Below, one piece after another: positions 2,150 to 13,444 of a stretch of 64,000 bases of DNA. The notes beneath the pieces are model-generated. The model was not told the origin of the DNA and did not search any database. It saw only the letters and a program-made list of their open reading frames with translations. The stretch comes from a phage: sequence record PZ452579.1; one strand, given 5' to 3'. The stretch's first letter is position 1. Every line of letters begins with the position of its first letter. The position numbers and the translations under genes were made by a program.

Positions 2150-3145
2150 TCATTCCTTAAGAAGTTTTACTACTTGAATAAGATTAGCTCGTTCTGTTTT
2201 ATTTTTACCGTTTAAGCCTGCTAATCGTGAGATTTCATCGTCAGTCTGTTGAATAGTTACATTAAGTTCGTTAATCAAAGCTTCAAAGTATTTGATTTGC
2301 TCAGCATGTTTTGATTCAAATTTCTGAACCGGAATAACGTCTTGGTTCAGTTCATCAATAAGGTCTTTAAGAGCATCTTCTTGGTTGATATCATATTCAA
2401 CTTCTTTTATTTCTTCAGCGAGCTCGTCTTTATATCTAACATCTTTTAGTCCTGGAGCTGGACCTAAAATCTCTTCTTTAAGAGTACAAACATATCCAAT
2501 ACGATATCCAATGCCGTCTCGCTTGATATCAACTTCGTCGATAAATCCACAATGTTTAAGCCCGGAGCCAATTAGGTCAAAATATCCTTGACGACGTCCT
2601 TCAAACGTTACACGAACTACTAAGACGGTTTTGCCACCGACCTTTTGAAGCTCACATTTATAAAAGTCTGTTGAACCTGAATAACGTGGATGAGTTTTAA
2701 AGTTCATCTGACGATCTAGGCCCATTTGTAAGCGTGCTGATACGGCCAGAAAACGTGTTTGGTTCTCGTTAAGATGAGCAACAATCCATTTCAAAGGCAT
2801 TTTACCATGTTCACGACCGAACAAATCAGTACGTCCTAAATTACGCAGGATATTGTTAGAGTTAATCATCGACAGAACGTTAAGTTTATTCAGCGCGCTG
2901 AAGATTCCATCGGCCATTGATTTTCCGTAACCTTTACATGCTTTAATAAGCGCTCGCGGTAGATTAGTATAGATTTCAGACGGCATATGAAAATCAAATT
3001 TACTAACCAGTAATTGATGAACTTGGATAGCAATTTGTTCATAATTAAGTGCTCTGCGATCATTATGGTCTTTAAACCACACTTTAATCTGTGAAGCACA
3101 TAAACCGTTAATTTCATGTTTTACCGCATCAGATGTAATGCTCAT
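2150..3145 (-). CDS. hypothetical protein, paralog of 1159..2094, C-terminal coiled coil
   Basis: 331-aa ORF; shared blocks with neighbour; acidic/coiled C-terminus. Confidence 0.6.
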   Translation of the reverse strand: MSITSDAVKHEINGLCASQIKVWFKDHNDRRALNYEQIAIQVHQLLVSKFDFHMPSEIYTNLPRALIKACKGYGKSMADGIFSALNKLNVLSMINSNNILRNLGRTDLFGREHGKMPLKWIVAHLNENQTRFLAVSARLQMGLDRQMNFKTHPRYSGSTDFYKCELQKVGGKTVLVVRVTFEGRRQGYFDLIGSGLKHCGFIDEVDIKRDGIGYRIGYVCTLKEEILGPAPGLKDVRYKDELAEEIKEVEYDINQEDALKDLIDELNQDVIPVQKFESKHAEQIKYFEALINELNVTIQQTDDEISRLAGLNGKNKTERANLIQVVKLLKE

Positions 3146-3207
3146 AACTATTTCCTCAGATTGAATTGGAACTCAAAACCATTATAACCCGTCCTTGGGT
3201 AAAGCGT

Positions 3208-3735
3208 TTATGCGTGAACCGTCTTTAAACGTTCTTCAAATTTCCGAAGAGTACTAATACGTTCTGCTTTCTGTTTTGTATAGTTTGCAATACGTTCTGA
3301 AGTGAGAGCGTATCGTTCGTTTACTGTTTCTTTCATGAAGTCAGGGATTTCACGAGAAGCTTTAATTTCATCAAACTTATCGAGTACTGCCTGGTCTTCA
3401 GCGATTAAATTTTCGTACATCTCGATATCTTTCTTAATGAAGTCGATATCTTCCTGGGTTACTTTGGATAAACGAGATGCTTTATCCTTTTTGTACTGCT
3501 CGTTAGTTTCGCGAGACCAGAATAACGTACGTTTTTTGTTAGTGTTTTTGTAGACTTCCACAATTCCAACTGAATCGATGATAACAATCCAATTCCAGCG
3601 AGATTTGAAAATCTGACCTCCGTCCACGGTAATCTCGTTACCATAAGCAACGTCGTTAAAGAACTTGCTTTGTGCTTCAGATTTAAATTTACCGTCGTTA
3701 TAATTTACCAGGTTGAAAATATCTTTAGCGTTCAT
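3208..3735 (-). CDS. hypothetical protein
   Basis: 175-aa ORF; RBS (ggaggtaaaac) and early-promoter element immediately upstream. Confidence 0.55.
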   Translation of the reverse strand: MNAKDIFNLVNYNDGKFKSEAQSKFFNDVAYGNEITVDGGQIFKSRWNWIVIIDSVGIVEVYKNTNKKRTLFWSRETNEQYKKDKASRLSKVTQEDIDFIKKDIEMYENLIAEDQAVLDKFDEIKASREIPDFMKETVNERYALTSERIANYTKQKAERISTLRKFEERLKTVHA

Positions 3736-3793: not shown

Positions 3794-4081
3794 CTAAAAG
3801 AAACTTTTTTCGGTATTTTTTCCACTGAACCAAACCGACTTCGGTATTTTCTGTAATTTTTCAGATTTAAGTTTCTCTTCCTGTTCTTTCTTATATACAC
3901 CCTTGTCGTACTGGAGCATCTCTATGGCATTCTTTTGCAAACGATCTAAGGTAATTAAGGCTTTAGTTTTTCCTTTCAAGGAAGAGTCCTGGCGAACCTC
4001 CTCGCTATATTGCATCGTAGAACTAACCATACGATGAGCATAGAGTTCGACTGCGGCTTTAATTTTTTGCATAAAATCCAT
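3794..4081 (-). CDS. hypothetical protein
   Basis: 95-aa ORF; overlaps alternative-frame ORF 3976..4182, so the true frame is uncertain. Confidence 0.35.
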   Translation of the reverse strand: MDFMQKIKAAVELYAHRMVSSTMQYSEEVRQDSSLKGKTKALITLDRLQKNAIEMLQYDKGVYKKEQEEKLKSEKLQKIPKSVWFSGKNTEKSFF

Positions 4082-4219
4082 AACATATCCTCTTTGATTT
4101 GTACATCATTATTTTTAAATATTTCTATGCCCTCAGTAGGTTCCTGGTGTCCTTCTTTGAGGTAAGCCATATGATTATTCATCTTTATGGCTTTTGTTAC
4201 CTCAGAACTTCCTATAAGC

Positions 4220-4342
4220 TTATTTCAGTAAAGTAACTTCCGAGATTTCTTCCCAACCATCTTTATCAGTTGAAATAAAATCTGCTACATAAAGAGCCGT
4301 ACGTAATGATACATTGCGAAGACGAGATACGTTAGCCTTCAT
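4220..4342 (-). CDS. small hypothetical protein (about 40 aa), start overlaps stop of the ATPase gene (ATGA)
   Basis: ATG overlapping TGA stop of 4339..5190; MKANVSRLRNVSLRTALYVADFISTDKDGWEEISEVTLLK; below ORF-track length cut-off. Confidence 0.25.
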   Translation of the reverse strand: MKANVSRLRNVSLRTALYVADFISTDKDGWEEISEVTLLK

Positions 4343-8983: not shown

Positions 8984-9286
8984 TTAGATAGATGTAGGCT
9001 CTAATTTTATTTTCATGAACTCGGCAAATTGTCTGGCAGTTTTTATGCCTTGTTCATGACATTCAAATGCATCATCACAGGGGCTATTTTTGTAATGCTT
9101 TGCCATATACTTATAAAATTTTTCAGAATTCTCAACATTTTGAATTTCGAACAAAGTATATACGTTTTTAATCCCTGATTCCATAAAGTTGTCAAAGTAC
9201 GGGTCGACATATGCAGTGCCAACGATAGGAGTTGTTGCTGCAAAAAACCCCAGCATCGCCACAATGGCTATCGCTCTTAAGGCCAT
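8984..9286 (-). CDS. rI: lysis inhibition regulator rI-like membrane protein
   Basis: 100-aa ORF; N-terminal signal-anchor; resembles T4 RI as I recall it; sits beside tk as in T4. Confidence 0.65.
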   Translation of the reverse strand: MALRAIAIVAMLGFFAATTPIVGTAYVDPYFDNFMESGIKNVYTLFEIQNVENSEKFYKYMAKHYKNSPCDDAFECHEQGIKTARQFAEFMKIKLEPTSI

Positions 9287-10129: not shown

Positions 10130-10312
10130 TTATAGTGAATTCACATAGTCAATGAGTTCTTGTTCTTTCCTGTCAAATGATTCCATCAATGCTTGATATT
10201 CTTCATCTGTTAAAGGAGCATATTCATCGTACGCATTGGTGGCTGTTTGCTCATCCAATAGGTCATGGATAAGTTCGAACAGTTTAGTTTTCTCTTCTTT
10301 AGTCAATTTCAT
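10130..10312 (-). CDS. hypothetical protein
   Basis: 60-aa acidic ORF. Confidence 0.4.
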   Translation of the reverse strand: MKLTKEEKTKLFELIHDLLDEQTATNAYDEYAPLTDEEYQALMESFDRKEQELIDYVNSL

Positions 10313-10530
10313 TTAGGTTCACCTTCTTTAACGAAATCTGGGTAAGGGTAAAATCCTGAGTAAAACCCTTCACCTTTATGATTGCTACAACCTTTGTTCG
10401 AACAGTAACACCAATAATCAAAATCACAAGCCATTTCGTCATTGCATAAAGCAAAAACTACAGGCCATTCGCATTTTTCGCATTTAGCACCTGTAAGAAT
10501 TTTTGTTTGGCTCATAACAATGGTTCCCAA
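10309..10530 (-). CDS. Cys-rich hypothetical protein (putative metal-binding)
   Basis: 73-aa ORF with about 9 Cys (CEKCEW...C...C..C.C...C). Confidence 0.45.
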   Translation of the reverse strand: MGTIVMSQTKILTGAKCEKCEWPVVFALCNDEMACDFDYWCYCSNKGCSNHKGEGFYSGFYPYPDFVKEGEPK

Positions 10531-11009
10531 TCAACAATCACAATTTCTAGTTTAGTGGAATATGTATCTAAAATCTCTTCGATGACATCCCAATTTCCAC
10601 CACCGATACCTGCACCAATTCTTGGCATATAAATTACAGGCTTTGTTATCTTATTCTTTCCGAATTCATTTAATTCTATTATACAATTCATTAAAGCAGA
10701 GTACTCAAAATTAGGTCCCGGCTCAAACTGTGTATAAAGATTAAAGCAATAAGCTTTATGGGTCTTAAAATATTTTTCATAAACCGAATAAGTCCCGAGT
10801 TTAGACTCGTCTCCGAATTCGGTTTGAAGTTTATCGGCTTCCAGAATTTTTGGATAAGCCTTTGCTAATTGTCCTGCCACACCGGCGCCCATTGTATGAA
10901 AACAATTACACCCATGAGCAATATTATTACCTTTAGAAAACAGGGCGACAATATCGCCCTTGATATAGTTTTTAATCACTTGCTGCAAGTCCTCTAGTAT
11001 AAGAGTCAA
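10512..11009 (-). CDS. macro-domain-like protein (putative ADP-ribose binding/processing)
   Basis: 165-aa ORF; Gly-rich motifs NIAHGCNCFHTMGAGVAGQLA and PRIGAGIGGGNWDVI reminiscent of macro domains. Confidence 0.45.
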   Translation of the reverse strand: MTLILEDLQQVIKNYIKGDIVALFSKGNNIAHGCNCFHTMGAGVAGQLAKAYPKILEADKLQTEFGDESKLGTYSVYEKYFKTHKAYCFNLYTQFEPGPNFEYSALMNCIIELNEFGKNKITKPVIYMPRIGAGIGGGNWDVIEEILDTYSTKLEIVIVDWEPLL

Positions 11010-11319
11010 CTAGACGGTCCACCATAGAATTGCATGCTGCCTTATCTTTAGGTTCCGCCACCGAGCATTCTAATATTTGCCATTTTTTATAGTATCTTTT
11101 AATTAAGGTAGACGCCTTGAACCTACTAGACGCCCCATCTTTTTCTCCGTCTTTATATGCGTATAACAATTTTTGTGAAAAATCTACTTTACACTCTTGA
11201 CTTTTACCACAATAATCAGACGCCGTTCTGTTTGTATACTCCGTTACATCAGTATATGTAGTATTAGCAAGAGCGTTAAATGAAACCAAGCCAACTATTA
11301 AAGCCAACATTTTGGTCAT
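10972..11319 (-). CDS. hypothetical protein with N-terminal signal-peptide-like segment
   Basis: 115-aa ORF; hydrophobic N-terminus MTKMLALIVGLVSFNALA; 4 Cys. Confidence 0.45.
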   Translation of the reverse strand: MTKMLALIVGLVSFNALANTTYTDVTEYTNRTASDYCGKSQECKVDFSQKLLYAYKDGEKDGASSRFKASTLIKRYYKKWQILECSVAEPKDKAACNSMVDRLVDSYTRGLAASD

Positions 11320-11858
11320 TCTTTTATTTCCAGTAGTTTATTTGATTTAAGGTAATTAGCCTTTTCTAGGACTTCAGAAGCATATTTACTTCCAGCACTT
11401 GTCTTCCATCCCGCATTATATGAGGATATAGCTTTTCTTATATCCCCATTATGTATATTTAACCAATAAGAAAATTCGATATAAGCCCATCTGGCTGAAT
11501 TAGACCGCTTAGATAGCATTTTCTTAATTTGGGCATCAGTCATATTATAACCAAGCTGGTTAATTCTTTCCCTCATTGTTGGTAGATAGTTTTGGAACAT
11601 TCCATACGCATGGTGACCTTTCTTATCTTTAAGATTAATACCGGCAGATGATTCCTGCCATAGTATTGCGGCCATTATGTATCCAAGTCCTTTCTTATGC
11701 ATATTTTCATGCGTTTTAAATTTTCCATCCTTAGAAAACTGTTCCCCAAACTGATAAGCATAATTCAAGTTATCGAGTTGGACATTACTAAAAGTATGCT
11801 CGGAGCCATGTGCTGATAACGAAAGAGCAAATAGACCAGCGAGTAGTGCTTTTCTCAT
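11316..11858 (-). CDS. secreted lytic-transglycosylase-like (SLT-like) protein
   Basis: 180-aa ORF; Sec-type signal peptide MRKALLAGLFALSLSAHG; SLT-like motifs LWQESSAG and YGMFQ. Confidence 0.5.
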   Translation of the reverse strand: MRKALLAGLFALSLSAHGSEHTFSNVQLDNLNYAYQFGEQFSKDGKFKTHENMHKKGLGYIMAAILWQESSAGINLKDKKGHHAYGMFQNYLPTMRERINQLGYNMTDAQIKKMLSKRSNSARWAYIEFSYWLNIHNGDIRKAISSYNAGWKTSAGSKYASEVLEKANYLKSNKLLEIKE

Positions 11859-11866
11859 GTTTACCT

Positions 11867-12325
11867 CTAGATTTTAATCACTGCTTTAGAAGCTTTTCCT
11901 GGTAGTCGTTTACTGTTAATAATAGCCATTCTGCATTGAAGAGTCTTCATTTTGAATGCTGGATTTTCGCGACAAACTGTAAGTCCTAACCAAAGATTTC
12001 CATCAGTTATTTCTAAACGGCCTGGGCGATATTCGACACCTTCGACAAAATCTTCATCAACATCTGGACGTGCCGGCATTGATAAAAATTCTGCAACTTC
12101 TTTAACATGATTTTTTACTTTACGAAATAATTCAAAAACGTAATTCTCATCTATTTCTCTCTGGATGGCACGATCTAAGAGATGTTGAGAATACTTGATA
12201 TGAAAGCCTGGTAGTCCAAGAGACTTTGCAGCATCTTTTATACAGGCATTGATTTGACGAAACTCCGTTTCAAAGATTCGACGGAGTTTATTGCGACGGA
12301 TAAAAACTTCCGAATTGATAGTCAT
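11867..12325 (-). CDS. regB: RegB-like endoribonuclease
   Basis: 152-aa ORF; length and position match T4 regB; N-terminus resembles my recollection of T4 RegB. Confidence 0.6.
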   Translation of the reverse strand: MTINSEVFIRRNKLRRIFETEFRQINACIKDAAKSLGLPGFHIKYSQHLLDRAIQREIDENYVFELFRKVKNHVKEVAEFLSMPARPDVDEDFVEGVEYRPGRLEITDGNLWLGLTVCRENPAFKMKTLQCRMAIINSKRLPGKASKAVIKI

Positions 12326-12341: not shown

Positions 12342-12382
12342 GTTGACAGGTCTATAATAACACAACTACTGGAGAAGTAAAC
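12342..12382 (-). promoter_or_regulatory. early-type promoter element upstream of regB
   Basis: GTTTAC-N17-TATTAT then AGACCTGTCAAC and RBS. Confidence 0.5.
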
Positions 12383-12868: not shown

Positions 12869-13082
12869 AAGGAATTTCCTCATCTGTGGCAAGGTCATAT
12901 TCGACCAATTGGATAGGCTCATTAATACCATATCCACGTACAGTGATATCAGTTGTCGGATAGTTTCCAGTAATATCACCCGTTCTAAATGCTTCAATGA
13001 ATGATTGCTCGCCTGAGCAACTAAACCAGGCGGCAAAACATTTTAAAACATCTTCAGACCCTTCTATAATCAATTTAGACAT
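12858..13082 (-). CDS. hypothetical protein
   Basis: 74-aa ORF; start overlaps stop of the GrcA-like gene. Confidence 0.4.
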   Translation of the reverse strand: MSKLIIEGSEDVLKCFAAWFSCSGEQSFIEAFRTGDITGNYPTTDITVRGYGINEPIQLVEYDLATDEEIPYVD

Positions 13083-13444
13083 TATAGACTCTCAGTAAAG
13101 GTACGAGCGATAACGTCGCGCTGCTGTTCTGGAGTCAGAGAGTTAAAGCGAACTGCATAACCGGATACACGGATGGTCAGCTGCGGATATTTTTCCGGAT
13201 GCTTAACTGCATCTTCCAGAGTTTCACGACGCAGAACGTTAACGTTCAGATGTTGACCACCTTCAATTTTAACTTTAGGTTGATGTTCAATTTCAATTTC
13301 ACGGGCATTCAAACCGTAGAAAATTTCCGGGTCTACAATAGCGTCTTCTTTAAAAGTCTTAGAGACAATAATCCGGGCTTGAGTGCCGTCTTCAAAATAA
13401 ATAGTGCCTTTATGTGCACCTTCAAGAATTTGATATGCTTTCAT
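13082..13444 (-). CDS. autonomous glycyl-radical cofactor (GrcA/YfiD-like) protein
   Basis: 120-aa ORF; C-terminus ...[60 protein letters not shown] carries the glycyl-radical RVSGYAV motif. Confidence 0.85.

Follow-up and report, generated by a model that had tools for sequence, protein, structure and literature searches.

Positions 10972-11858 of the phage DNA analysed here (sequence record PZ452579.1; the whole stretch of 64,000 nucleotides is referred to as the window) contain two open reading frames (ORFs) on the minus strand, one encoding 180 amino acids (11316..11858) and the other 115 amino acids (10972..11319). The longer ORF is the orthologue of vs.1 and the shorter the orthologue of vs in a Mosigvirus, an RB69-like relative of T4. 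In Mosigvirus relatives the two products are named "transglycosylase SLT domain-containing protein" or Vs.1 and "valyl-tRNA synthetase modifier" or Vs. Both proteins begin with apparent export signals, which conflicts with the name of Vs, since that name refers to a cytoplasmic enzyme, valyl-tRNA synthetase (ValRS). An earlier note, made from the letters of the window, had remarked that a signal peptide would be odd for a cytoplasmic tRNA-synthetase modifier. Its observations hold, with the ORFs at the coordinates it gave, and the conflict is upheld by the family-wide signals, the lipobox clade and the cysteine pairs described below; its wider interpretation, of peptidoglycan-active periplasmic proteins made early, is only partly supported.

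The DNA around vs.1-vs is 98% identical to that of Mosigvirus phages such as ST2, JS09, APCEc01 and SCS57. Copies of both genes that are 98-100% identical already carry annotation in GenBank, and 100% identical Vs proteins are encoded by deposited phage genomes. The window Vs.1 (180-residue precursor; predicted mature form 162 residues, 18.8 kDa, pI 9.5) shares 81% identity with the protein of T2, itself one residue away from T4 Vs.1 (Y06E_BPT4, P13311; PHROG 600). Length, position between regB and vs, signal peptide and motifs are shared with T4 Vs.1, and there is no difference of substance. The window Vs (115-residue precursor, 12.9 kDa; predicted mature form 97 residues, 10,992 Da, pI 8.3) is 67% identical to T2 Vs, which is the same protein as T4 Vs, and matches phrog_1256, 'valyl tRNA synthetase modifier', with an E-value of 5e-35. 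It is thus by sequence and position the orthologue of T4 Vs, or tau (P13310; PF26829; PHROG 1256), and precomputed assignments place Vs homologues in Pfam PF26829 ValRS_modifier. Neither Vs nor Vs.1 had a match in NCBIfam. The earlier note had correctly put the 115-residue ORF at the T4 vs position but described it as upstream; although its plus-strand coordinates are the lower ones, it comes after vs.1 when the coding strand is read.

The predicted Sec signal peptide of Vs.1 comprises residues 1-18 (11805..11858, minus strand; MRKALLAGLFALSLSAHG, followed by SEHTF), with cleavage between AHG and SE. That of Vs likewise comprises residues 1-18 (11266..11319, minus strand; MTKMLALIVGLVSFNALA, followed by NTTY), with cleavage between ALA and NT. 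In both, a positively charged n-region precedes a hydrophobic core of about 12-13 residues that is free of charges, and a small-x-small site (-3/-1) places cleavage at 18/19. The calls were made with an explicit home-made heuristic rule and not with SignalP. Applied as a filter to the 142 ATG-initiated ORFs of at least 60 amino acids in all six frames of the whole window, the rule passed four: vs, vs.1, rI and one plus-strand ORF, which lies on the strand opposite to all genes examined and is probably spurious. With 4 of 142 ORFs passing, the signal features of vs and vs.1 exceed chance. The orthologue of the periplasmic antiholin rI (8984..9286, minus strand; relatives call it 'lysis inhibition regulator') was the positive control of the filter and is the only real gene in the 64-kb window besides vs and vs.1 to pass it.

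Of 118 full-length Vs.1 homologues, 114 show the signal-peptide features, and the other four look like truncated gene calls. Every full-length Vs homologue whose N-terminus is intact shows them too, the most distant ones included. T4 Vs has the same features (MTKILVLCIGLISFSASASA, followed by DTSY, with cleavage between ASA and DT). Among Vs homologues the signal segment is 38% identical to the window protein and the mature core 51%. The signal segment therefore drifts faster than the core, which is the pattern expected if only its physical properties are under selection. In one clade of Vs a lipoprotein box, LSGC (ALSGC followed by K), replaces the signal peptidase I site (contigs L037, L039, L043, L046 and L063, at about 2995-3321, and L009, at 4001-4327), which implies a putative lipid-anchored form of the so-called ValRS modifier. 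The earlier note had called the Vs.1 signal peptide clear and the start of the 115-residue ORF signal-peptide-like; by the heuristic the two are equally canonical. From these sequence features we are confident in predicting that Vs carries a conserved export signal and Vs.1 a Sec signal.

One possibility is that the N-terminal segments are not cleaved and instead serve as membrane anchors or as signal-anchor-release (SAR) domains, which would tether the proteins or release them conditionally. The Vs.1 hydrophobic core, ALLAGLFALSLSA, is rich in Ala, Gly and Ser, as this would have it, and a Vs homologue from a Pseudomonas phage (L013) has a longer and less canonical N-terminus. T4 RI was also long described as having an uncleaved SAR domain, but RI was later shown to have a cleavable signal peptide (PMC8385771). 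Since the cores of about 12-13 residues are too short to span a membrane and are followed at a conserved distance by canonical small-x-small sites, we regard uncleaved segments as very unlikely.

Alternatively, the label of Vs could be correct. Vs would then be the tau peptide that binds cytoplasmic ValRS, its N-terminus would export the protein only partly or not at all, or would have another role, Vs.1 would act alone, and the adjacency of the two genes would reflect T4 synteny. This is the main rival explanation, and we consider it doubtful. Its name is in every database, Pfam PF26829 ValRS_modifier included, but it leaves the family-wide signal peptides, the lipobox clade and the cysteine pairs unexplained. 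A signal peptide of n-h-c structure with an AXA site has been kept throughout the family in spite of sequence drift, and a lipobox makes no sense on a cytoplasmic protein. A signal-less cytoplasmic Vs would also need an internal start codon, and there is no in-frame ATG, GTG or TTG in codons 12-50 of the window gene or in codons 6-72 of the T4 gene.

The mature part of Vs bears on the same question. Modelled alone with AlphaFold2 (AF2), mature Vs gave a four-helix bundle (helices 2-19, 23-46, 51-67 and 72-95) at a predicted local distance difference test score (pLDDT) of 92.4, so that the model folds confidently without the N-terminal segment, which argues against a cytoplasmic protein that keeps this segment. 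Four cysteines (Cys37, 43, 85 and 96 of the precursor; 11032..11211, minus strand) are invariant in 38 sequences and persist even in the most distant homologues. The AF2 model places each pair at a helix-loop-helix turn, from which we infer two hairpin-stapling disulfides. Disulfide stapling is typical of extracytoplasmic proteins, and two invariant cysteine pairs at helix turns are not what a cytoplasmic ValRS modifier would lead one to expect. The same can be said of the inclusion bodies that N-terminally His-tagged T4 Vs formed when it was expressed in the cytoplasm (PMC8076793). The most conserved stretch of Vs, MVDRLVDSYTRGL (10987..11025, minus strand), lies in the C-terminal half of helix 4, is nearly invariant and is still visible as ...L..Y..GL in the most distant homologues; it is a candidate interaction surface.

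The fold model of Vs had no informative structural match. The Vs family is narrow, with 43 clusters at 90% identity in a word-indexed search. An exhaustive HMMER search with the Vs profile returned only 8 proteins among 1.84 billion representatives, with no cellular homologue, and all of those that could be traced come from T4-like phages. Natural variants and a faulty annotation of vs were also seen. The Dhakavirus vB_EcoM_005 gene (L007, 1393-1650) has lost the first cysteine pair through an internal in-frame deletion and encodes 85 amino acids, and a frameshift divides vs in one metagenomic contig (L046, 2995-3192). In PEi26 (L004, 1501-1848) the annotation covers just the final 54 codons of an intact ORF of 115 codons.

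Vs.1 is an SLT-fold enzyme with its catalytic apparatus in place, and of this we are confident. The motif LWQESSAG (residues 66-73; 11640..11663, minus strand) contains Glu69 (GAA, 11652-11654), the predicted catalytic acid in the E-S motif of family 1 lytic transglycosylases. YGMFQ (residues 85-89; 11592..11606, minus strand) is the counterpart of SLT motif II (G-L-M-Q), and SYNAG (residues 146-150; 11409..11423, minus strand) that of SLT motif III (A-Y-N-x-G). The catalytic Glu and all three motifs are therefore present; the earlier note had pointed to the first two. Glu69, Gly86, Gln89, Asn90, Tyr147 and Gly150 are invariant among 64 aligned members, and Phe88 and Asn148 are conserved in at least 90% of them. 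In the alignment with the g-type lysozyme 3gxk, Glu69 falls on the Glu of its RES motif, which we take to be the catalytic residue of that enzyme, and SYNAG aligns with AYNTG of g-type lysozyme. No second acidic residue is conserved after Glu69 in the Vs.1 family, Asp78 being variable, which leans towards a transglycosylase rather than a hydrolase; we infer the activity itself, as well as its type, from the fold and the invariant residues.

The overall structure agrees with the motifs. Fold comparison of Vs.1, which has the lysozyme-like alpha-helical catalytic fold, gave scores of 12.3 for MltF, 11.7 for Pseudomonas aeruginosa Slt, 11.1 for Escherichia coli Slt70, 11.0 for g-type lysozyme, 10.8 for MltC, 10.1 for EtgA and 9.6 for MltE, with phiKZ gp144, phi6 P5 and T7 gp16 lower in the list, and Foldseek agreed. 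At the family level, 57 of 64 diverse homologues match Pfam SLT at an E-value of 0.01 or better (best 1.3e-7), which makes the family a divergent branch of the superfamily and not a chance match. The SLT fold that the earlier note proposed to check was thus recovered by structure and by family, the window protein alone staying below the Pfam threshold. Searches of the PDB by sequence, with single sequences and with profiles, gave nothing significant for either protein (g-type lysozyme, E-value 0.8); the best matches, to an antibody light chain, a metacaspase and an SLH domain, were not significant and were rejected.

Compared with other family 1 lytic transglycosylases and GH23 enzymes (E. coli Slt70, MltC and MltE; P. 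aeruginosa MltF and Slt; EtgA of a type III secretion system; goose-type lysozyme), Vs.1 is only 13-19% identical. Unlike them it is a bare 162-residue domain with an extra N-terminal helix-hairpin (model residues 7-40), and it lacks a lipid anchor, LysM and a superhelical domain. The same fold occurs in the N-terminal domain of T7 gp16, in phiKZ gp144, in phi6 P5 and in Kayvirus Tgl. Whereas gp16, gp144 and P5 work during entry or lysis, as parts of the virion or as endolysins, Vs.1 comes from an early RNA made during infection and is not known from the virion. Kayvirus Tgl, a secreted enzyme similar to lytic transglycosylases, reaches the wall through host Sec and not through a holin, as predicted for Vs.1 (PMC7150955).

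The SLT similarity of six vs.1 orthologues has been published, together with an earlier PSI-BLAST result for T4 (Nolan et al. 2006, PMC1524935), so the prediction for vs.1 is about twenty years old. The SignalP table of that paper covers novel ORFs only and includes neither vs nor vs.1. No biochemical test of T4 Vs.1 function was found in the searchable literature. As genes, vs.1 and vs are ordinary conserved accessory members of the T4 core, and since the genes and the SLT prediction were already known, their novelty is low.

The two genes are closely joined. The vs.1 stop and the vs start overlap in ATGA (four bases; 11316..11319, minus strand), an arrangement for translational coupling, and the Shine-Dalgarno-like sequence upstream of vs is weak; relatives also have an overlap or close abutment. 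The GAGG Shine-Dalgarno sequence of vs.1 (11864..11867, minus strand), 5 nt before the ATG, abuts the stop of regB (ORF end 11867), and since this leaves no space for a separate promoter vs.1 is probably co-transcribed with regB. A candidate promoter of sigma-70 or T4-early type (12354..12381, minus strand; TTTACT, 16 nt, TG-TATTAT), found by consensus scan upstream of regB, could drive regB-vs.1-vs-tk.4; the number of sites from the promoter and terminator scan of the region was at or below shuffle expectation. In T4 both vs.1 and vs are classed as "early RNA, middle protein", and both proteins have been seen by mass spectrometry (PMC9697503 supplement).

The order regB-vs.1-vs-tk.4-tk is common to T2/T4, Kanagawavirus, Marfavirus, Gaprivervirus and Dhakavirus, five T4-like genera besides Mosigvirus. 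A scan of viral contigs gave 80 loci with Vs.1 relatives of 99% to 31% identity, corresponding to 67 distinct Vs.1 sequences. In 46 of the 67, vs or a recognisable Vs-like ORF lies directly behind vs.1 (39 positive with the profile, of which two are truncated, and 7 identified from a signal peptide, four cysteines and the C-terminal motif), and in another 7 a profile-positive vs lies within about 1.5 kb. In one contig the pair is intact with an upstream neighbour other than regB. Several distant T4-like phages have Vs.1 (31-44% identity) with no vs nearby (L012, 2501-3554; L067; L074-L093), and Vs.1 can thus exist without Vs; in L012 a macro-domain gene directly follows vs.1. Several divergent T4-like contigs have a third signal-peptide ORF of 135-147 amino acids after vs, in the place of tk.4 (L008, 778-1185; L009, 4324-4743; L010, 3339-3752; L013, 3371-3814). 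These ORFs share a cleavage context (...A followed by WEK, WET or WDK) and a conserved ...YATY... C-terminus, had no Pfam match, and would make vs.1, vs and the third ORF a run of three predicted exported proteins.

Phenotypic data come from T4. In the HIDEN-SEQ transposon screen vs and vs.1 are non-essential, with read means in the liquid LB control of 26.6 for vs and 22.6 for vs.1 against 289.6 for tk.4 and 178.6 for regB (bioRxiv 10.1101/2025.11.20.689424). In the LB-versus-M9 competition table of that study the LB read means of vs and vs.1 mutants are therefore about ten-fold under those of their neighbours. When M9 is compared with LB, no gene is more depleted than vs (log2 fold change -2.19, adjusted p 0), and vs.1 has a log2 fold change of -0.87 (p 0.0055, adjusted p 0.155). 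A clean vs deletion reproduced the minimal-medium defect, and the authors call the role of ValRS modification unknown (bioRxiv 10.1101/2025.11.20.689424). The screen shows that both genes matter for T4 fitness, vs most of all in minimal medium. The like cost of vs.1 and vs insertions fits a shared pathway.

Taken with the sequence features, these data make us lean, by a little, towards a reading in which Vs.1 and Vs are both periplasmic and Vs is functionally tied to Vs.1. The genes regB, vs.1 and vs would be transcribed together, with vs translation coupled to that of vs.1 through the ATGA overlap. Both precursors, with their predicted signal peptidase I signals, would be exported through Sec to the periplasm. 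There Vs.1 would be a small soluble SLT/GH23 enzyme whose Glu69 cuts the MurNAc-GlcNAc bond, most likely as a lytic transglycosylase, and Vs would mature to an 11-kDa four-helix bundle, probably stapled by two disulfides. Since vs stays beside vs.1 across very divergent T4-like phages, Vs would be a periplasmic binding partner or modulator of Vs.1, the two probably acting jointly on peptidoglycan. On such a reading "valyl-tRNA synthetase modifier" would not name the main site of action of Vs. While infection proceeds, the pair might conceivably loosen or remodel the sacculus, an action of most consequence in slow-growing cells, where the wall is more cross-linked. The transglycosylase motif of T7 gp16 is likewise reported to be needed only in slow-growing conditions with a more cross-linked wall.

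The stricter claim, that in the infected cell Vs is no cytoplasmic modifier of ValRS at all but an exported, disulfide-stapled partner of periplasmic Vs.1, we put forward tentatively, as possible though well short of probable. If it is true, the minimal-medium defect of T4 vs mutants would be a phenotype of the cell envelope. The old label could then have arisen in either of two ways: a basic 11-kDa periplasmic protein might have met ValRS only after the cells were broken, or the vs locus might have been pinned to the wrong ORF. Binding of cytoplasmic ValRS, the property by which T4 tau was defined, conflicts with the export features of the family. The T4 Vs precursor has a mass of 13.1 kDa and the predicted mature form one of 11.0 kDa; tau was reported at about 10 kDa, which fits processed Vs at least as well as the precursor. 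If tau was the product of this ORF, it may well have passed through Sec.

Several points weigh against an exported, periplasmic pair. Export of both proteins is a prediction from a home-made rule. The window Vs.1 reaches 18.5 bits (E-value 0.0015) against Pfam PF01464 SLT, below the gathering cut-off of 21.3. No vs was found nearby for 14 of the 67 distinct Vs.1 sequences, mostly in the most divergent group, and the existence of phages with Vs.1 and without vs suits a cytoplasmic Vs that has no part in Vs.1 function. T4-like gene order is generally conserved, which makes adjacency weak evidence for physical partnership. The like cost of vs.1 and vs insertions could be explained by polarity of vs.1 insertions on the coupled vs. 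A translation-related role would account just as well for the minimal-medium defect of the vs deletion; that a clean T4 deletion shows its defect specifically in minimal medium, where the cell must make and charge its own amino acids, is what a ValRS modifier would predict. Classical T4 genetics connects the vs locus with ValRS behaviour in vivo, vs mutants having reportedly been selected and mapped by the way valS(ts) hosts behaved, which argues for cytoplasmic action, and purified tau is reported to reconstitute modified ValRS in vitro.

Export could also serve another end. Vs could be an exported inhibitor or immunity protein that restrains Vs.1, or that blocks a host lysozyme or transglycosylase or one of a superinfecting phage, in the manner of Spackle with gp5, of PliG or of Tsi3. 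T4 does export small proteins before lysis: Spackle (gp61.3) and RI are periplasmic and have cleavable signal peptides, as predicted for Vs (PMC7650644; PMC8385771), and in the window rI lies 1.7 kb away. The targets of Spackle and RI, gp5 lysozyme and the holin T, are known, unlike that of Vs, and neither protein has sequence or fold similarity to Vs. Comparison with the periplasmic inhibitors Ivy, MliC/PliC, PliG, Spackle and Tsi3 gave no fold similarity to Vs, and we think an inhibitory or immunity role unlikely.

Which compartment Vs occupies matters beyond this locus. The textbook annotation contradicts itself, a 50-year-old ValRS-modifier label standing on a family in which all members look exported, and the name "valyl-tRNA synthetase modifier" has spread to hundreds of phage genomes and is now a Pfam family. 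No discussion of a signal peptide on Vs, or of a conflict between its export and its textbook function, was found in the searchable literature. The compartment of Vs would redirect follow-up of the 2025 minimal-medium screen in which vs was most depleted, and the answer bears on why a lytic phage should send a wall-cutting enzyme out of the cytoplasm so far ahead of lysis.

The flanking genes are typical of the T4 group. Upstream on the coding strand vs.1 is flanked by regB (11867..12325, minus strand; Pfam REGB_T4, E-value 8e-69), and directly downstream of vs is the macro-domain gene tk.4 (10512..11009, minus strand; Pfam Macro, E-value 2e-6). The T4 orthologue of tk.4 has recently been named adfM as an anti-DarT2 factor, and it is proposed to strip ADP-ribose from DNA (bioRxiv 10.1101/2025.11.20.689424). 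A 120-residue ORF at 13082-13444 (minus strand) is the positional counterpart of vs.6, or 'autonomous glycyl radical cofactor GrcA', in the early-gene block of relatives. At the 10512-10516 junction the window lacks about 204 bp that are present in its closest relatives, for example vB_EcoM_SCS57 (L001, 2618-2821). The loss corresponds to exactly one hypothetical ORF of 70 amino acids, between a 68-residue zinc-binding ORF (10309..10515) and tk.4, and the 5-bp overlap at the junction suggests a microhomology deletion.

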